DNA of 64,000 nt from Escherichia coli (GTDB taxonomy: Bacteria; Pseudomonadota; Gammaproteobacteria; Enterobacterales; Enterobacteriaceae). A model generated the notes under the pieces. The model made no database searches and was not told the DNA's origin. It saw only the letters and a program-made list of their open reading frames with translations. Location: the NCBI RefSeq assembly GCF_050920415.1, contig NZ_CP169309.1, one strand, 5' to 3'. This document shows positions 3,813 through 54,251 of this stretch, one piece after another. Within the stretch, counting starts at the first letter, position 1, and every line of letters begins with the position of its first letter. Made by a program: the position numbers and the translations under genes.

Positions 3813-4571
3813 ATGCATTACCAGCCAAAACAAGATTTACTCAATGATCGCATTATCCTGGTGACGGGAGCCAGCAATGGTATTGGTCGTGAAGCCGCGA
3901 TGACGTATGCACGCTATGGTGCGACAGTGATTCTGTTGGGCCGTAATGAAGAAAAATTACGTCAGGTAGCCAGCCACATAAACGAAGAAACTGGGCGTCA
4001 GCCACAGTGGTTTATTCTCGATTTGCTGACCTGCACGTCCGAAGATTGCCAACAACTGGCACAGCGCATTGCCGTTAATTATCCGCGTCTGGATGGTGTT
4101 TTGCATAATGCCGGATTGCTCGGCGATGTTTGCCCAATGAGCGAGCAAAACCCGCAGGTCTGGCAGGACGTCATGCAGGTCAACGTTAATGCCACCTTTA
4201 TGCTCACCCAGGCACTGCTTCCTTTATTACTCAAATCGGACGCCGGTTCACTGGTCTTTACTTCATCAAGCGTTGGACGTCAGGGGCGTGCAAACTGGGG
4301 CGCTTATGCAGCGTCGAAATTTGCCACCGAAGGGATGATGCAGGTACTGGCCGATGAATATCAGCAGCGCCTGCGCGTCAACTGCATTAACCCAGGTGGT
4401 ACGCGCACCGCAATGCGCGCAAGCGCCTTCCCGACCGAAGATCCACAGAAACTTAAAACACCCGCTGATATCATGCCGCTCTACCTCTGGCTGATGGGCG
4501 ATGACAGCCGCCGTAAAACCGGCATGACCTTTGACGCCCAACCGGGCCGTAAACCAGGAATATCCCAATGA
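3813..4571 (+). CDS. yciK: Short-chain dehydrogenase/reductase YciK
   Basis: 252 aa with Rossmann motif VTGASNGIG; 4-bp overlap with btuR suggests an operon. Confidence 0.88.
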   Translation: MHYQPKQDLLNDRIILVTGASNGIGREAAMTYARYGATVILLGRNEEKLRQVASHINEETGRQPQWFILDLLTCTSEDCQQLAQRIAVNYPRLDGVLHNAGLLGDVCPMSEQNPQVWQDVMQVNVNATFMLTQALLPLLLKSDAGSLVFTSSSVGRQGRANWGAYAASKFATEGMMQVLADEYQQRLRVNCINPGGTRTAMRASAFPTEDPQKLKTPADIMPLYLWLMGDDSRRKTGMTFDAQPGRKPGISQ

Positions 4572-45057: not shown

Positions 45058-46592
45058 GGGTGCGGCTCCGTTTTACTGGTCACGTCGATGGCATCGATAC
45101 GGCGGCTGTTGAACAGATTGAATTTGGTATCTGAACCGTGGCAGCCGTCACCAAAGGTAAAGCCACAGCCATTTTTCTCCGGGAAGGCTTCCCGCGCCAG
45201 TTCACGGTGACTGCTCGGCACCACAAAGCGATCTTCGTAGTTGGCAATTGCCAGATAACGGTACATCTCCTGTGCCTGAGCTTCGGTCAGACCGACCTCT
45301 TCCAGCGCACGGGTATCAACTTTACCGTCAACGGTTTCAGCACGTTTGTAATGACGCATCGCCAGCATACGTTTCAGCGCGCGCAGTACCGGTTTGGTAT
45401 CACCGGCGGTCAGCAGATTCGCCAGATACTGTACCGGGATACGCAGGCTTTCGACGTCTGGCAAAATACCGTTGCTGCCCAGCTCGCCCGCATCTGCCGC
45501 AGACTGAATCGGCGACAGAGGTGGCACATACCAGACCATCGGCAGCGTGCGATATTCCGGATGCAGCGGCAGCGCCAGTTTCCATTCCATCGCCATTTTA
45601 TAAACCGGCGACTGCTGTGCGGCTTCAATAACGCTCAGCGGAATACCATCTTTAATCGCCTGCTCGATGACGTTCGGATCATTCGGATCGAGGAACACGT
45701 CCAGCTGACGCTGGTAGAGATCTTTCTCGTTCTCGGTGCTGGCTGCACGTTCAATCGCGTCGGCATCGTACAGCAGCACGCCAAGATAACGGATACGACC
45801 GACACAGGTTTCAGAGCACACCGTCGGCTGACCGGCTTCAATACGCGGATAGCAGAAGATGCACTTCTCAGACTTACCGCTCTTCCAGTTGAAGTAGATT
45901 TTTTTGTACGGGCATCCGGTGATGCACATACGCCAGCCGCGGCATTTGTCCTGGTCGATCAGGACGATGCCATCTTCTTCACGCTTGTAAATCGCACCGC
46001 TCGGGCAGGTCGCCACACATGCCGGGTTCAGGCAGTGTTCGCACAGGCGTGGCAAATACATCATGAAGGTGTTTTCGAACTGGCTATACATCGCCTTCTG
46101 GATGTTGTCGAAGTTCTTGTCTTTCGCCAGTTTGTCAAACTCGCCGCCCAGGTCATCTTCCCAGTTCGGTCCTTTTTCGATTTTCGCCATCCGTTCGCCG
46201 GTAATCAGCGAACGTGGACGGGCAATCGGCTGCGATTTGCTGCCTTCCGGCGCGGTATGCAGGTTCTGATAGTCAAAATCGAACGGCTCGTAATAATCGT
46301 CGATCCCCGGCAGATGCGGGTTAGCGAAGATTTTACCCAGCAGCATGGCGCGGTTACCCATGCGCGGTTGCAGTTTGCCGTTGATTTTTCGGATCCAGCC
46401 GCCTTTGTATTTTTCCTGGTTTTCCCAGTCTGTCGGGAAGCCCTGGCCCGGCTTGGTTTCCACGTTGTTGAACCACGCGTATTCCACGCCTTCACGGCTG
46501 GTCCAGACGTTTTTACAGGTCACTGAACAGGTGTGGCAACCGATGCACTTATCCAGATTCAGCACCATGCCGACTTGTGAACGAATTTTCAT
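45054..46592 (-). CDS. narH: Respiratory nitrate reductase beta subunit
   Basis: 512 aa with four Cys clusters for Fe-S centres. Confidence 0.96.
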   Translation of the reverse strand: MKIRSQVGMVLNLDKCIGCHTCSVTCKNVWTSREGVEYAWFNNVETKPGQGFPTDWENQEKYKGGWIRKINGKLQPRMGNRAMLLGKIFANPHLPGIDDYYEPFDFDYQNLHTAPEGSKSQPIARPRSLITGERMAKIEKGPNWEDDLGGEFDKLAKDKNFDNIQKAMYSQFENTFMMYLPRLCEHCLNPACVATCPSGAIYKREEDGIVLIDQDKCRGWRMCITGCPYKKIYFNWKSGKSEKCIFCYPRIEAGQPTVCSETCVGRIRYLGVLLYDADAIERAASTENEKDLYQRQLDVFLDPNDPNVIEQAIKDGIPLSVIEAAQQSPVYKMAMEWKLALPLHPEYRTLPMVWYVPPLSPIQSAADAGELGSNGILPDVESLRIPVQYLANLLTAGDTKPVLRALKRMLAMRHYKRAETVDGKVDTRALEEVGLTEAQAQEMYRYLAIANYEDRFVVPSSHRELAREAFPEKNGCGFTFGDGCHGSDTKFNLFNSRRIDAIDVTSKTEPHP

Positions 46593-49500
46593 TTTACGCT
46601 CTCCTGTACCTGGTCATTGCCTTCGCCATCTAACCAGTCAATGTTCTTCATCTTACGCACTACAACAAATTCATCGCGGTTAGAACCTACAGTGCCGTAG
46701 TAGTTAAAGCCGTATGCCAGATGGGCATAGCCGCCGATCATATGCGTCGGTTTCGGCGTGATACGGGTGACCGAGTTATGAATACCACCGCGCTGGCTGG
46801 TGATTTCTGAACCCGGCAGGTTAACGATACGTTCCTGCGCGTGGTACATCATGGTCATCCCTGCCGGAACACGCTGGCTGACAACCGCACGGGCAGTCAA
46901 TGCACCGTTGCTGTTGAAGACTTCAATCCAGTCGTTGTCGGCGATACCCAGCTCTTTGGCATCGGCTTCACTCAACCAGACCACCGGACCACCGCGACCT
47001 AAAGTCAGCATCAGCAGGTTGTCGCTGTAGGTGGAGTGGATACCCCACTTCTGGTGCGGTGTCAGGAAGTTGAGCGCTTTTTCCGGATTACCGTTAGATT
47101 TCTGGCCCATCACTTCTTTCACTGAACGGGTGTCGATCGGCGGACGATAAACCAGCAGGCTTTCACCGAAATCACGCATCCACTGATGATCCTGATACAG
47201 CTGCTGACGGCCAGAGAGCGTACGCCACGGGATCAGCTCGTGAACGTTGGTGTAACCGGCGTTGTAAGAAACATGTTCATCTTCAAGGCCAGACCAGGTC
47301 GGGCTGGAGATGATTTTGCGCGGCTGTGCCTGGATATCGCGGAAGCGGATCTTCTCGTCTTCTTTATTCAGCGCCAGATGCGTATGGTCACGACCGGTAA
47401 ACTCGCTCAGGGCAGCCCAGGCTTTCACGGCTACCTGACCATTGGTTTCCGGTGCCAGCGTCAGGATCATCTCTGCCGCATCAATTGCGGTGTTCAGCAT
47501 CGGCTGGCCTTTTGCCGGACCTTCCGCTTTGGTGTAGTTGAGCTTACGCAGCAGATCCATCTCGCTCTGGGTGTTCCAGGCAATCCCTTTACCGCCGTTA
47601 CCGATTTTCTCCATCAGCGGACCGATAGAGGTAAAGCGTTCGTAAGTTGCCGGATAATCGCGCTCTACGACCATAATGTGCGGTGCAGTTTTACCTGGGA
47701 TCAGGTCGCATTCGCCTTTTTTCCAGTCTTTCACATCCAGCGGCTGCGCCAGTTCAGCGGCAGAGTCGTGCTGGATCGGCAGCGTAACGATGTCGGTTTC
47801 TTTGCCCAGATGACCAACGCACACTTCGGAGAATTTCTTCGCGATGGCTTTGTAGATTTCCCAGTCGCTTTTCGCTTCCCAGGCCGGATCGACCGCCGCA
47901 GACAGCGGGTGAATAAACGGATGCATATCCGAAGTATTCATGTCGTCTTTTTCGTACCAGGTCGCCGTCGGCAAAATGATGTCGGAATAGAGACAGGTGC
48001 TCGACAGACGGAAGTCCAGCGTCACCACCAGATCCAGCTTGCCTTCCAGACCGTTGTCCTGCCAGTCCACTTCTTCCGGCTTCACGCCGCCCTGCTGACC
48101 CAGGTCTTTACCCTGGATACCGTGCTCCGTCCCCAGCAGGTACTTGAGCATAAACTCATGACCTTTACCGGAAGAACCGAGCAGGTTAGAACGCCAGATG
48201 AACAGGTTACGCGGGTGGTTTTTACCGTTTTCTGGTTGTTCTGCCGCAAAACGGATAGAACCCTCTTTCAGGGATTTCACGGTGTAATCCACCGGATTCA
48301 TGCCCGCTTTTTCCGCTTCGCGAGCGATAGTTAGCGGGTTAGTGCCTAACTGCGGCGCAGACGGCAGCCAGCCCATGCGTTCTGCACGGACGTTGAAGTC
48401 GATCAGATGTCCGGTATAGCGGGATTTATCCGCCATCGGCGACAGCAACTCTTCTGCGGTCACAGTTTCATAACGCCACTGGCTGGAGTGGTTATAGAAA
48501 TAAGAGGTGCTGTTCATGTGACGCGCCGGACGCTGCCAGTCAAGAGCAAACGCCAGCGGCTGCCAGCCGGTTTGCGGACGCAGTTTTTCCTGACCTACAT
48601 AGTGCGCCCAGCCGCCACCGCTCTGACCTACACAGCCGCAGAAAATCAGCATGTTGATCAGACCACGATAGTTCATATCGAGGTGATACCAGTGGTTCAG
48701 CCCCGCACCGACGATAATCATCGAACGACCGTGCGTCTTGTCAGCGTTGTCAGCAAATTCACGGGCAATGCGGATAATCTGGCTGCGAGAAACGCCAGTG
48801 ATCTGCTCGGCCCATGCCGGGGTGTAAGCTTTCACGTCGTCATAGCTGGTTGCGCAGTTAACGTCGTTCAGGCCACGTTCCAGACCGTAGTTTGCCAGCG
48901 TCAGATCATAAACGGTGGTCACCAGAGCAGTGCTGCCATCAGCCAGTTGCAGACGTTTTACCGGCAGCTTGTGCAGCAGCACATTTTCCAGCTCCACTTT
49001 ATTGAAGTGTTCCGTGCCGTCGCCACCAAAGTACGGGAAGCCCACTTCAGCGATCTCATCCTGGCTACCCAGCAGGCTCAGTTGTAGCTCAGTTTCTTCG
49101 CCGGTTTTGCCGTCGCGCTGCTCAAGATTCCATTTGCCCTTCTCGCCCCAGCGGAAGCCAATAGAACCGTTCGGTGCAACCATTTCGCCATTGGTATTGA
49201 AGGCGACTGTTTTCCATTCCGGATTGTTTTCCTGGCCCAGCGCATCCACCAGATCGGCAGCGCGCAGCATACGACCCGCAGCGTAGTAACCGTCGCGCTC
49301 TTCCAGCATCACCAGCATTGGCATGTCGGTATAACGACGCACATAGTCGGTGAAATACTGGCTTGGGTTGTCGAGGTGGAATTCACGCAGCATCACGTGG
49401 CCCATCGCCAGCGCCATTGCTGCGTCGGTGCCCTGTTTCGGTGCCAGCCACAGATCGCACAGTTTGGCGATTTCAGCGTAGTCCGGCGTGACGGCAACGG

Positions 49501-50332
49501 TTTTGGTGCCTTTGTAGCGCACTTCAGTAAAGAAGTGAGCATCCGGAGTACGCGTCTGCGGCACGTTTGACCCCCAGGCGATGATGTAGCTGGAGTTGTA
49601 CCAGTCAGCAGATTCCGGTACGTCAGTTTGCTCGCCCCAGGTTTGTGGAGACGCAGGAGGCAGGTCGCAGTACCAGTCGTAGAAGCTTAAGCAAGTACCG
49701 CCAATCAGCGAAAGATAGCGAGCACCCGATGCGTAAGAAACCATCGACATTGCCGGAATTGGCGAGAAGCCAGCGACGCGGTCCGGGCCGTAGTTTTTGA
49801 TGGTGTAAACGTTAGAGGCAGCGATCAGTTCGTTCACTTCCTGCCAGGAAGAACGAACAAAACCACCACGTCCACGCGCTTGTTTAAAGCTTTTCGCTTT
49901 ATCGGCGTCTTCAATGATAGAAGCCCATGCCTCAACCGGATCGCTATGCTGCGCCTTCGCTTCACGCCACATTTTCATCAGGCGTTTGCGCATCATCGGA
50001 TATTTCAGACGGTTGGCGCTATAGAGATACCAGGAGTAGCTGGCACCGCGCGGGCAGCCGCGAGGTTCATGGTTTGGCAGATCCGGACGGGTACGCGGAT
50101 AGTCAGTTTGCTGGGTTTCCCAAGTCACCAGACCGTTTTTAACGTAGATTTTCCAGCTGCAGGAGCCGGTGCAGTTTACCCCATGGGTAGAGCGGACGAT
50201 TTTGTCATGCTGCCAACGCTGGCGATATCCATCCTCCCAGTCACGGTTGGTATTGAGAAGCTGGCCATGCCCATCGGCAAAGGTTTCGCCCTTCTGTTTG
50301 AAGTAGCGAAACCGGTCCAGGAATTTACTCAT
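46589..50332 (-). CDS. narG: Respiratory nitrate reductase alpha subunit
   Basis: 1247-aa molybdoenzyme. Confidence 0.97.
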   Translation of the reverse strand: MSKFLDRFRYFKQKGETFADGHGQLLNTNRDWEDGYRQRWQHDKIVRSTHGVNCTGSCSWKIYVKNGLVTWETQQTDYPRTRPDLPNHEPRGCPRGASYSWYLYSANRLKYPMMRKRLMKMWREAKAQHSDPVEAWASIIEDADKAKSFKQARGRGGFVRSSWQEVNELIAASNVYTIKNYGPDRVAGFSPIPAMSMVSYASGARYLSLIGGTCLSFYDWYCDLPPASPQTWGEQTDVPESADWYNSSYIIAWGSNVPQTRTPDAHFFTEVRYKGTKTVAVTPDYAEIAKLCDLWLAPKQGTDAAMALAMGHVMLREFHLDNPSQYFTDYVRRYTDMPMLVMLEERDGYYAAGRMLRAADLVDALGQENNPEWKTVAFNTNGEMVAPNGSIGFRWGEKGKWNLEQRDGKTGEETELQLSLLGSQDEIAEVGFPYFGGDGTEHFNKVELENVLLHKLPVKRLQLADGSTALVTTVYDLTLANYGLERGLNDVNCATSYDDVKAYTPAWAEQITGVSRSQIIRIAREFADNADKTHGRSMIIVGAGLNHWYHLDMNYRGLINMLIFCGCVGQSGGGWAHYVGQEKLRPQTGWQPLAFALDWQRPARHMNSTSYFYNHSSQWRYETVTAEELLSPMADKSRYTGHLIDFNVRAERMGWLPSAPQLGTNPLTIAREAEKAGMNPVDYTVKSLKEGSIRFAAEQPENGKNHPRNLFIWRSNLLGSSGKGHEFMLKYLLGTEHGIQGKDLGQQGGVKPEEVDWQDNGLEGKLDLVVTLDFRLSSTCLYSDIILPTATWYEKDDMNTSDMHPFIHPLSAAVDPAWEAKSDWEIYKAIAKKFSEVCVGHLGKETDIVTLPIQHDSAAELAQPLDVKDWKKGECDLIPGKTAPHIMVVERDYPATYERFTSIGPLMEKIGNGGKGIAWNTQSEMDLLRKLNYTKAEGPAKGQPMLNTAIDAAEMILTLAPETNGQVAVKAWAALSEFTGRDHTHLALNKEDEKIRFRDIQAQPRKIISSPTWSGLEDEHVSYNAGYTNVHELIPWRTLSGRQQLYQDHQWMRDFGESLLVYRPPIDTRSVKEVMGQKSNGNPEKALNFLTPHQKWGIHSTYSDNLLMLTLGRGGPVVWLSEADAKELGIADNDWIEVFNSNGALTARAVVSQRVPAGMTMMYHAQERIVNLPGSEITSQRGGIHNSVTRITPKPTHMIGGYAHLAYGFNYYGTVGSNRDEFVVVRKMKNIDWLDGEGNDQVQESVK

Positions 50333-50423
50333 CGGTTTTCTCCTGTGGGAGCCTGTCGGCTCTCTGATAAATCGACATTGCTAATGTTTAAGGGCAAGGT
50401 AACGCTCTGAAACAGCGTGGGAA

Positions 50424-50437
50424 TTGATAACGATCAA
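50424..50437. promoter_or_regulatory. FNR box TTGATAACGATCAA upstream of narG
   Basis: Match to TTGAT-N4-ATCAA consensus about 90 bp upstream of the narG ATG. Confidence 0.75.
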
Positions 50438-50474
50438 GAGTGATGGGGATGAAAAATAAAGTAAATTCCTAAGA

Positions 50475-50481
50475 TACCCCT
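50475..50481. promoter_or_regulatory. NarL heptamer TACCCCT in the narG upstream region
   Basis: Matches TACYYMT consensus; other heptamers probably present but not mapped. Confidence 0.5.
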
Positions 50482-50724
50482 TTAGGATAATTAACAGTTA
50501 CATCATAAAATACTGTAAATTAAGGCATTTTATACCTGTAGTTATTTAAACTATTAAGAATTTTATGCAGATGGGTATTAAGGAGTATTCCCCATGGGTA
50601 ACATATTAATGGCTCTTAATGAAATCCGGCGAAATAAGCCATATAACATTAGTATGTTGTAACTAAATGATGCATAAAAAAAGCGCGACATCATGCCGCG
50701 CAAAGGATAATCAAATATTAAGAT

Positions 50725-52116
50725 TTATTTTTTAGAATGCCGACCATATACCGCCCAGGTAATCACTACGCAGGCGATATAGAAAATCAAAAATACTTTC
50801 ATTGCGCCGACTGGCGAACCCGTTAATGCCAGCGAGCTACCGAACGCTTTCGGGATAAAGAAGCCACCAATCGCGCCAATCGCAGAGATGAAACCCAGCG
50901 CCGCCGCCGTGTCGGTTGCCGCTTCACGCATCGCACGTTCGTCAGAACCCCCTTCTGCTTTCACGCGATCCATTGTCAGTTTACGGAAGATCACGGAAAT
51001 CATCTGGAAAGTGGAACCACTACCCAGCCCAGCTGTCAGGAACAGCGCCAGGAAGACTGCGAAGAACGCCATGAAGCTTCCGCCCTGTCCGTCAGTCGGT
51101 AAGGTCAGGAACAGCAGGCCGCTGAAAATCGCCATCAGGATAAAGTTCACCAGTGTGACACGAGTTCCGCCCAGACGGTCAGATAATGCACCACCTGCAG
51201 AACGCGCCAGCGCACCAATAAACGGCCCGAAGAAAGCGTATTGCAGAATCTGAACATCCGGGAACTGCGTTTTTGACAGCATCGCAAAGCCCGCGGAGAA
51301 GCCGATGAAGGAGCCGAAGGTTGCCAGATACAGCAGGCTCATAATCCACAGATGACCCCGTTTGAGTACCGGCAACTGCTCCTTGATGGAGGCTTTCGAG
51401 GTAGCAAGATCGTTCATGCCAAACCACGCCGCAATGGTGAAGATGGCAAGGAACGGCACCCATACCCAGGACGCATTCGCCAGATACAGCTCAGTCCCAT
51501 CCGGCTGTTTGACACCCTGGCTACCAAATACTGCGAAAATCGACAGTGATACCACCAGCGGAGCAACCAACTGCATGACGCTGACGCCCATGTTGCCCAG
51601 ACCACCATTCAGACCCAGCGCGCCACCCTGCTTCTGTTTCGGAAAGAAGAAGCTGATGTTTGCCATACTGGATGCGAAGTTCGCGCCAGCAAAGCCGCAC
51701 AGCAGAGAGATGATGATGAAGACGCTATAAGGCGTGGAGGTATCCTGCACGGCAAAACCCAGCCAGACGCAAGGAATAATCAGAATACCGGTGCTGAACG
51801 CCGTCCAGCGACGACCACCGAAGATAGGAACCATAAAGGAGTATGGAACACGTAACAACGCGCCAGAAACCGAAGGCAGCGCCGTCAACATAAATAGCTG
51901 ATCGGTCGTAAAATTAAAACCGACTTTCGGTAAGTTCACCGCAACAGCACTGAATAACATCCATACGCAAAACGCCAGCAGCAGACAGGGAACGGAAATC
52001 CACAGGTTGCGGCTGGCAATACGTTGACCGCGTTGTTGCCAGAACGCAGGATCTTCCGGTCGCCAATCTGTAATGACAGCTCCAGTAGCCCTTTCGGGGG
52101 CGGATGAGTGACTCAT
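50725..52116 (-). CDS. narK: Nitrate/nitrite transporter NarK (463 aa)
   Basis: MFS transporter; start at second ATG (MSHSSAPERA) matches known length. Confidence 0.93.
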   Translation of the reverse strand: MSHSSAPERATGAVITDWRPEDPAFWQQRGQRIASRNLWISVPCLLLAFCVWMLFSAVAVNLPKVGFNFTTDQLFMLTALPSVSGALLRVPYSFMVPIFGGRRWTAFSTGILIIPCVWLGFAVQDTSTPYSVFIIISLLCGFAGANFASSMANISFFFPKQKQGGALGLNGGLGNMGVSVMQLVAPLVVSLSIFAVFGSQGVKQPDGTELYLANASWVWVPFLAIFTIAAWFGMNDLATSKASIKEQLPVLKRGHLWIMSLLYLATFGSFIGFSAGFAMLSKTQFPDVQILQYAFFGPFIGALARSAGGALSDRLGGTRVTLVNFILMAIFSGLLFLTLPTDGQGGSFMAFFAVFLALFLTAGLGSGSTFQMISVIFRKLTMDRVKAEGGSDERAMREAATDTAAALGFISAIGAIGGFFIPKAFGSSLALTGSPVGAMKVFLIFYIACVVITWAVYGRHSKK

Positions 52117-52454
52117 AGACACCTCTGATACTCGTTTCGATGTCTGCCACCTTAGTGTCTGTAGCTAAAGGCAATTTGATGTAAATCAAACGATAAGATA
52201 ACTTTATCTATCATTGATATTTATCATTACCCATAGTGAGTACAGTGATTTCATAAAAATTATGAGATTTTTCACGGTGCTGTAAAATCCCTACCCTTAC
52301 CGATGTAAAGCGACTAACCACGTGGCAAATAAGGAGTAACTCTTTCCGGGTATGGGTATACTTCAGCCAATAGCCGAGAATACTGCCATTCCAGAATGTA
52401 TCGTCACATTCATTAAGGTTATTGCTCATTTAAAGCCTGAAGGAAGAGGTTTGC

Positions 52455-54251
52455 ATGCTTAAACGTTGTCTCTCTCCGCTCACCCTGGTTAATCAGGTTG
52501 CGCTTATTGTGTTGCTTTCTACTGCTATTGGACTGGCGGGGATGGCGGTTTCTGGCTGGCTGGTACAAGGCGTTCAGGGCAGCGCCCATGCGATCAACAA
52601 AGCGGGATCGCTGCGCATGCAAAGTTACCGTCTGTTGGCGGCAGTGCCATTAAGCGAGAAAGACAAGCCCTTAATTAAAGAGATGGAACAAACGGCATTT
52701 AGCGCCGAGTTAACCCGAGCAGCAGAACGAGACGGACAACTGGCGCAACTACAGGGTTTACAAGATTACTGGCGTAATGAACTGATCCCTGCGCTGCTGC
52801 GTGCACAAAACCGCAAAACGGTGTCAGCGGATGTCAGCCAGTTTGTTGCCGGGCTTGATCAACTGGTATCTGGTTTTGACCGCACCACGGAAATGCGCAT
52901 TGAGACAGTGGTGCTGGTCCATCGGGTAATGGCGGTATTTATGGCACTTTTACTGGTGTTCACTATTATCTGGTTGCGGGCGCGACTGCTACAACCGTGG
53001 CGGCAGTTGTTGGCAATGGCGAGTGCCGTCAGCCATCGCGATTTTACCCAACGCGCGAACATCAGCGGGCGCAACGAAATGGCTATGCTTGGAACTGCGT
53101 TGAACAATATGTCTGCAGAACTGGCGGAAAGTTACGCCGTACTTGAGCAGCGGGTTCAGGAGAAAACCGCCGGGCTGGAACATAAAAATCAGATCCTCTC
53201 TTTTTTATGGCAGGCCAACCGCCGTTTGCATTCCCGCGCCCCGCTGTGTGAACGCCTGTCACCTGTACTCAACGGCTTACAGAATTTAACCCTGCTACGT
53301 GATATCGAACTGCGGGTGTATGACACTGATGATGAAGAGAATCATCAGGAGTTTACCTGCCAGCCAGATATGACCTGCGATGATAAAGGCTGTCAGCTCT
53401 GCCCGCGCGGTGTACTCCCCGTTGGCGATCGCGGCACAACCCTGAAGTGGCGGCTGGCTGACTCTCATACGCAGTACGGTATTTTGCTGGCAACCCTGCC
53501 GCAGGGGCGTCATCTTAGTCATGATCAACAACAACTGGTGGATACCCTGGTTGAACAACTCACCGCCACGCTTGCGCTGGATCGCCATCAGGAACGTCAG
53601 CAACAGTTGATCGTGATGGAAGAGCGTGCCACCATTGCGCGCGAACTGCATGATTCTATTGCCCAATCTCTCTCTTGCATGAAGATGCAGGTGAGTTGTT
53701 TACAGATGCAGGGCGATGCGCTGCCAGAAAGCAGCCGCGAACTGTTAAGTCAGATCCGTAACGAACTGAATGCATCCTGGGCGCAGTTGCGTGAATTGCT
53801 CACCACATTCCGCTTGCAGCTCACCGAGCCTGGATTACGTCCGGCACTGGAAGCGAGTTGCGAAGAATACAGCGCCAAATTTGGCTTCCCGGTGAAGCTG
53901 GATTATCAATTGCCGCCTCGTCTGGTGCCTTCGCATCAGGCAATCCATCTGTTGCAAATTGCCCGTGAGGCATTAAGTAACGCCCTCAAACATTCGCAAG
54001 CGAGTGAGGTCGTGGTGACAGTGGCGCAAAACGATAATCAGGTCAAACTGACCGTCCAGGATAACGGCTGCGGCGTGCCTGAAAATGCCATCCGCAGCAA
54101 TCACTACGGCATGATAATAATGCGCGACCGTGCGCAAAGTTTACGAGGCGATTGCCGCGTCCGCCGTCGTGAATCAGGTGGCACCGAAGTGGTGGTCACC
54201 TTTATTCCCGAAAAAACTTTCACAGACGTCCAAGGAGATACCCATGAGTAA
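52455..54251 (+). CDS. narX: Nitrate/nitrite sensor histidine kinase NarX
   Basis: 598 aa; periplasmic P-box, HAMP, H-box ELHDSIAQ. Confidence 0.95.

Follow-up and report, generated by a model that had tools for sequence, protein, structure and literature searches.

The Escherichia coli narK-narG spacer as a probable composite of the NarS 3' end, the replication terminator TerD, and the narG control region

Our analysis of 64,000 nucleotides of Escherichia coli DNA (contig NZ_CP169309.1; this whole stretch is referred to here as the window) places the interval 50333-50724 between narK and narG. In particular, the minus strand carries, in this order, narK, the spacer (50724-50333), narG, narH, narJ, and narI; the plus strand encodes narX and narL, starting at 52455. 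A 551-bp query covering the interval matches E. coli strain MFDS1022581 (NZ_CP169399.1) with 100% identity; the RefSeq annotation of that strain was applied to the window (locus coordinate = window coordinate minus 47249). The same query was matched in 5415 of 5426 complete E. coli genomes, in which the flanking annotation is always narG and narK. The spacer is 97-100% identical to its E. coli counterparts, with 97% identity to K-12 outside an insertion, as determined by alignment. The narK reading frame of the ORF list (50725-52122, 465 aa) begins at a GTG; the RefSeq start (52116, 463 aa) is located 6 nt downstream.

The spacer has a length of 392 bp and a G+C content of 35.5%, compared with 49.6% for the window, and ranks in the lowest 1.3% of 392-bp windows, in agreement with its initial annotation as an AT-rich interval of about 390 bp. 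Small ORFs of 22-41 aa in the spacer were rejected as coding: they are poorly conserved in sequence and overlap known sites. We consider it very probable that the interval represents the narK-narG intergenic region of E. coli and that it is a composite of three independent, already described elements: the narK 3' end with its terminator and the sRNA NarS, the replication terminator TerD, and the narG control region (Table 1). All spacer elements have already been described for E. coli K-12, and no new mechanism is called for.

Table 1. Features in and around the narK-narG spacer, in window coordinates; promoter positions are relative to the predicted narG start.
Feature	Position	Strand	Basis
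narK CDS, nitrate/nitrite transporter	50725..52116	-	ORF list and RefSeq; stop TAA 50727-50725
Predicted NarS short form, 61-63 nt, from narK mRNA 3' end	50676..50738	-	K-12 b4813, Salmonella data, fold
NarS seed AUUUGAUUAUCCUUU, NarS nt 23-37	50702..50716	-	nirC complementarity; fits published seed nt 21-33
NarS seed, conserved core UUGAUUAUCC	50705-50714	-	kept in most Enterobacteriaceae
narK/NarS Rho-independent terminator	50676..50701	-	stem-loop 50701-50683, U7 50682-50676
TerD, predicted 23-bp Tus-binding site CATTAGTATGTTGTAACTAAATG	50647..50669	+	TerB-identical core, primers, 1.28 Mbp listing, conservation
NarL "-200 region" heptamer TACCCAT, -208	50600-50594	-	exact match
NarL "-200 region" heptamer TACTCCT, -195	50587-50581	-	exact match, conserved; PMC4549865
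NarL "-200 region" heptamer TACCCAT, -185	50577-50571	-	exact match
Candidate IHF core AATTAAGGCATTT, -129 to -141	50518..50530	+	weak consensus match, 2 mismatches to WATCAANNNNTTR
NarL -89 heptamer TACCCCT (AGGGGTA in narG direction)	50475..50481	+	exact match; PMC4549865
FNR box TTGATCGTTATCAA, palindromic half-sites, centre -41.5	50424..50437	.	consensus match, shuffles, conservation; PMC3688515
Predicted narG core promoter, -10 TACCTT (50401-50396), start 50389	50389..50401	-	FNR at -41.5
narG 5' UTR, about 57 nt	50333..50388	-	31-species conservation profile and fold
Invariant UTR block AGCAATGTCGATTT, +8 to +21	50382-50369	-	conservation profile
UTR hairpin GAGCC-GACA-GGCTC, directly upstream of Shine-Dalgarno	50362-50349	-	fold, conservation
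Shine-Dalgarno AGGAG of narG	50344-50340	-	conservation profile
narG CDS, nitrate reductase A alpha subunit	46589..50332	-	ORF list and RefSeq

To assess conservation, we used a set of 36 spacers, comprising 35 fetched enterobacterial narK-narG spacers and the window; the conservation profile was built on 31. A NarK genome scan returned no Salmonella locus among the 80 matches listed, and the comparison with Salmonella therefore rests on the text of the published work together with Citrobacter and Enterobacter sequences. Identities, motif statistics, conservation, and seed-target complementarity were all computed here.

The spacer contains the activator sites of the narG promoter. The FNR box called by the initial annotation, TTGATAACGATCAA, is a perfect match to the FNR consensus TTGATNNNNATCAA, and the box is perfect in 35 of the 36 spacers, with its centre 93-113 bp (mostly 97-100 bp) from the narG ATG. 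The narGHJI FNR site is published at -41.5, with a ChIP peak (PMC3688515), and on this basis the narG start is placed, by homology, at position 50389 of the minus strand. With the start at 50389, the heptamers land exactly on the published -89, -195, and -208 names. Relative to this predicted start, TTGAT-N4-ATCAA lies about 41.5 bp upstream, as is characteristic of a narG-type class II FNR-dependent promoter. The -10 region, GTTACCTT, is conserved in the 31-spacer profile. A generic scan for sigma-70 promoters yielded no match in 50200-50900; the lack of a match is expected, because the narG promoter is activator-dependent, and it also fits NarS having no independent promoter.

Four exact NarL heptamers, TACYYMT, are present in the spacer, including one in the -89 region and one at -195, as in a narG-type promoter. 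Specifically, TACCCCT, which had been picked out from the letters, is the known -89 heptamer, given the start at 50389. An exact heptamer at -89 is found in 9 of the 36 species, with partial conservation in the remainder; at -195, the block TACTCCTTAATACC is conserved, and an exact heptamer lies precisely at that position in most of the 36 species. Published footprints of NarL-P show high-affinity binding at -89 and lower-affinity binding at -195, both of which are needed, together with FNR and IHF (PMC4549865). The reading of the spacer as the narG control region for anaerobic nitrate induction is thus right in the main, on the strength of literature and conservation, but the initial annotation named one of the four NarL heptamers and omitted the conserved -195 box and IHF.

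The possibility that the FNR and NarL motifs are chance matches in AT-rich DNA has to be weighed, since TACYYMT is a short motif with 53 occurrences across the whole 64-kb window, and since one-mismatch FNR boxes in the window, at 7 versus 2.8 expected, are not significantly enriched. Perfect FNR boxes, however, number only two in 64 kb, both in nar promoters, versus a mean of 0.11 in window shuffles (3 of 300 shuffles reach two), and a perfect box within the spacer itself arises in 10 of 5000 shuffles. The four spacer heptamers compare with a mean of 0.55 in local dinucleotide shuffles, of which 6 of 5000 reach four. The spacer heptamers are thereby enriched over shuffled sequence. Moreover, up to 35 of 36 species retain the motif positions, and binding data are published for the identical K-12 sequence (PMC4549865, PMC3688515). 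A chance origin is almost certainly wrong, and we retain the reading of the motifs as the narG activator sites.

Between the -89 and -185 boxes, the window departs from most E. coli. Within E. coli, the segment 50470-50570 (-81 to -181), where the IHF region lies, is hypervariable: the window allele has a match of at least 99% in only 2 of 5426 complete genomes, 4221 genomes match at 90-95% identity, and about 1150 have no megablast match. The binding sites flanking this segment are invariant in E. coli. The window strain carries a rare allele of the spacer between about -100 and -180. An IHF consensus scan returned 2-mismatch matches only, the best of which (Table 1) shows a partly conserved A/T pattern in a region that is variable within E. 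coli. Comparison with the K-12 narGHJI promoter shows that the two sequences share every base of the FNR box, the four heptamers, the -10, and the 5' UTR apart from a single substitution in the UTR, with equal distances and the same downstream gene; the difference consists of nine substitutions in the window, which cluster in the IHF spacer (about -105 to -135). Activation by nitrate under anaerobiosis is documented for the near-identical K-12 narG sequence (PMC4549865, PMC3688515).

Downstream of the start, the narG 5' UTR is very strongly conserved among 31 species. To our knowledge, no function has been assigned to the conserved block or to the hairpin of this UTR. The conserved UTR could be the target of a regulator or sRNA, or a translation-control element.

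At the opposite end of the spacer, the narK terminator hairpin lies within the interval, as had been proposed. Its stem comprises eight pairs, six of them G-C, and is conserved across genera, with compensatory changes. In Salmonella, the 3' end of the Hfq-bound, narK-promoter-dependent sRNA NarS is the narK terminator, its main form, NarS-S, has a length of 63 nt and results from an RNase E cut at UCAUUC inside the narK CDS, and its seed, nt 21-33, sequesters the nirC Shine-Dalgarno sequence (PMC7038943). The window has the RNase E-type site GC|AUUC (RN|WUU-like) at 50740-50735 inside narK, where Salmonella has UCAUUC. A cut at this site would yield 50738-50676, exactly 63 nt; the annotated K-12 start is 2 nt further downstream (50736). 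The predicted NarS fold comprises an open 5' half containing the single-stranded seed, followed by the terminator hairpin (-13.6 kcal/mol, z = -2.5).

The seed forms a perfect 15-nt Watson-Crick duplex with K-12 nirC from -13 to +2, covering the Shine-Dalgarno sequence, and 0 of 500 seed shuffles equal it; nirC lies outside the window, and the target sequence was taken from K-12. The locus combines, as expected of NarS, a narK 3' end, a Rho-independent terminator with a U-tail, and a conserved single-stranded seed complementary to the nirC Shine-Dalgarno sequence (of K-12 nirC). An Rfam scan of 50000-51200 at E <= 1 returned no match to a NarS family; Rfam has no NarS model. The scan matched the ribosomal protein L20 leader (RF00558) at 50671-50804 on the minus strand (cmscan, 25.4 bits, E = 0.018), which would make the narK 3' region an L20 leader-like RNA. 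That score falls far short of the family's gathering threshold (58.7), the alignment is carried by the terminator hairpin, the U-run, and an A/U-rich stretch, and the gene context is narK rather than infC-rpmI-rplT. We give an L20 leader virtually no credence, and NarS is the preferred identity of the narK 3'-end RNA.

The K-12 NarS gene (b4813; Wang et al. 2020, PMC7038943) occupies the same narK 3'-end position and has an identical terminator and seed. It is annotated at 1279337-1279520, 184 nt, and maps, minus an insertion, to 50736-50676. The difference is a 128-nt ERIC-like insertion that in K-12 directly follows the narK stop, where the window has ATCTT (within 50720-50727). The K-12 annotation reaches 184 nt because of this insertion; since the window lacks it, NarS of the window should have a length of about 61-63 nt, like Salmonella NarS-S, with the exact 5' end placed by homology. 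We call the insertion ERIC-like from its match, at 20 of 22 positions, to what we take to be the ERIC2 primer sequence (Versalovic et al. 1991). Dispersed copies of the insertion, which resembles ERIC/IRU repeats, occur elsewhere in E. coli genomes. Of 5426 complete E. coli genomes, 2457 (about 45%) carry the insertion at the narK 3' end, so the short form, at about 55%, is slightly commoner. NarS length thus varies within E. coli, and findings on processing or stability made in K-12 may not hold for short-form strains such as the present one. An ERIC-like element occupies the corresponding place in four Citrobacter genomes, between the narK stop and the NarS seed (about 3900-4030 of the fetched loci), in the orientation opposite to that in K-12, and a fifth Citrobacter has no such element. 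The opposite orientation suggests independent insertions at a preferred spot.

Between the narK terminator and the NarL sites is located the strongest conserved block of the upstream half of the spacer, TAGTTACAACATACT (50665-50651, minus strand). An exact copy of this 15-mer occurs in 26 of the 35 fetched spacers as well as in the window (27 of 36), and 31 of 36 spacers match it with at most one mismatch; Cedecea neteri, Enterobacter sp. Ag1, and two metagenome-assembled genomes have lost it. None of the narU-narZ paralogous loci contains it. A full-text literature search for the 15-mer string returned Tus-Ter papers only, and the block is the reverse complement of the Ter core strand. Specifically, the plus strand carries the core GTATGTTGTAACTA at 50652-50665, with G6 at 50652; the core as defined in the literature comprises G6 and positions 8-18 (PMC8347550). 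It is identical to the core of TerB, 14 nt upstream of K-12 tus, and a published TerB oligonucleotide carries the same core (PMC4499146).

Three lines of evidence agree in identifying 50647-50669 as TerD: the TerB-identical core, the TerD primers that bracket it, and the position at 1.28 Mbp. The ChIP-qPCR primers TerDF and TerDR, published by Toft et al. in a supplement (PMC8707476), have exact matches in the window at 50673-50697 (minus strand) and 50573-50597 (plus strand), on either side of the motif. A review places terD at 1.28 Mbp, not within an ORF, and notes an observed fork block (PMC10331603); the K-12 narK-narG spacer spans 1,279,349-1,279,863. TerD is counted among the ten primary Ter sites of E. 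coli that Tus binds. The K-12 TerD 23-mer is identical, at the same position and in the same orientation, and no difference from it was detected. A full-text literature search for the exact TerD 23-mer returned no matches, and the main texts of two fork-trap papers contain no Ter sequences.

The orientation is also that of TerD. The GC(6) end of the site, which is the non-permissive face, points toward low coordinates. The plus-strand GC skew of the window, -0.033, indicates that the origin-derived fork travels in the direction of decreasing coordinates and reaches TerD at its permissive face. Tus ChIP-seq occupancy has been reported at TerA-E and G, with TerD in the group that arrests anticlockwise forks, and the orientation in the window agrees with this group. 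The site thus combines a conserved 23-bp/core sequence, the K-12 TerD locus, and an orientation that lets the origin-derived fork pass and would block the one from the terminus. By analogy with the K-12 literature, Tus would bind TerD of the window and arrest forks there.

The identification of TerD changes the reading of the RNA that the initial annotation had placed at about 50640-50724 on the minus strand. That interval overlaps the predicted NarS at 50676-50724, but it runs 36 nt past the terminator and misses 12-14 nt inside narK; it is shifted because the NarS 5' end is inside narK and the 3' end is at 50676. The part of it at 50647-50669 is TerD, which had gone unrecognised. A single narK 3'-derived sRNA covering the whole of about 50640-50724, in which the conserved sequence past the hairpin is part of the RNA, would account for the real seed and terminator that the interval holds, and the strong conservation of 50651-50665 could suggest a functional RNA segment. 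Yet the U-run ends at 50676, the K-12 narS annotation ends at the equivalent base, the NarS 5' end is inside narK, and the conserved block is a TerB-identical Ter core bracketed by the TerD primers. In addition, K. oxytoca, Kluyvera, and Pluralibacter gergoviae keep the Ter block while lacking the NarS seed, which indicates that the two elements are separable. We judge a single RNA of this extent highly improbable and retain NarS and TerD as adjacent, separate elements.

The second alternative for the block is a far-upstream narG regulatory site, either a NarL heptamer at -262 (TACTNNT) or a site for another transcription factor, instead of or besides Ter. The block lies at -262 to -276 and has a near-fixed distance of 218-222 bp to the FNR centre in 24 of 32 species, across an intervening sequence that is unalignable; four species have an exact TACYYMT at -262, starting at the last four bases of the 15-mer; and the fragment used for the published NarL footprint stopped at -236 (PMC4549865). 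Against this, the 14-nt Ter core is exact, what is conserved is the core contacted by Tus and not a NarL heptamer, and the heptamer in the window would be TACTAAT, with one mismatch. The literature, moreover, puts TerD here (PMC8707476, PMC10331603), with Tus ChIP occupancy. The spacing is unspecific, because other lengths in the spacer are similarly stable, as for the 93-113 bp between the FNR centre and the ATG; for the same reason, the Ter-FNR spacing is not evidence for a role of Tus in narG regulation. A regulatory site at this position is improbable in our estimation, and TerD remains the preferred identity of the block. NarL 7-2-7, ArcA, ModE, NsrR, LysR-type, and GntR-type sites and promoter hexamers were also considered for the 15-mer, and none of them fitted.

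The position of TerD relative to the narK terminator is nearly fixed across genera. In 28 of 32 species, the Ter 15-mer follows the U-run of the terminator at a distance of 9-11 nt, with variable sequence in between, and the 23-bp TerD site of the window begins six bp past the U-run. This fixed spacing is the sole mildly new point of our analysis. The synteny suggests that TerD is ancient and common to many Enterobacteriaceae genera. Published comparisons left cross-genus Ter-site orthology open and called the need for TerD enigmatic; the position of TerD beside the narK terminator across genera offers a simple synteny handle on Ter-site orthology.

With the terminator 9-11 nt from Ter, RNA polymerase ending narK transcription would abut the permissive face of Tus. 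Since other spacer lengths are about as stable, there is only a small chance that the narK/NarS terminator and TerD are a conserved functional pair and not chance neighbours. If they were a pair, the terminator could protect Tus-TerD from displacement by strongly induced narK transcription; alternatively, Tus on its site could be a roadblock, which would sharpen the NarS 3' end and insulate the narG upstream activating region. The conserved adjacency of TerD and terminator provides a testable idea on the interplay between transcription and Tus.

Taken together, the elements suggest the following working of the region, in which protein binding, RNase E processing, Hfq dependence, and fork arrest are taken from the literature. 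Transcription of narK, activated by FNR and NarL from its own promoter, would stop at the Rho-independent terminator, which would also define the NarS 3' end, and RNase E would cut about 12-14 nt before the narK stop to release an Hfq-dependent NarS of about 61-63 nt. The single-stranded NarS seed would pair with the nirC ribosome-binding site, such that the nitrite transporter would be repressed during nitrate respiration. Tus bound to TerD would form a polar barrier backing up TerA: it would let pass the normal clockwise fork, which is co-directional with narK-narG transcription, and would arrest forks arriving from the terminus side. The narG promoter would be class II FNR-dependent, with FNR at -41.5 recruiting RNA polymerase to the weak -10, TACCTT; phosphorylated NarL on the -89 and -195 (and -185/-208) heptamers would co-activate it, and an IHF bend between the NarL regions would bring the far sites to the promoter. 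The predicted outcome is anaerobic, nitrate-induced transcription of narGHJI.

The main value of the analysis lies in a correction: a textbook regulatory spacer interpreted solely as a promoter contains a replication terminator as well. Since the spacer carries Ter beside the transcription terminator, conserved sequence adjoining a terminator hairpin should not be mistaken for RNA.

A second group of motifs is present on the other side of narK. The narK-narX spacer contains the second perfect FNR box of the window (52176-52189), a one-mismatch FNR box (52214-52227), and NarL heptamers at 52228, 52332, and 52352; these motifs (52176-52358) presumably belong to the known narK promoter.
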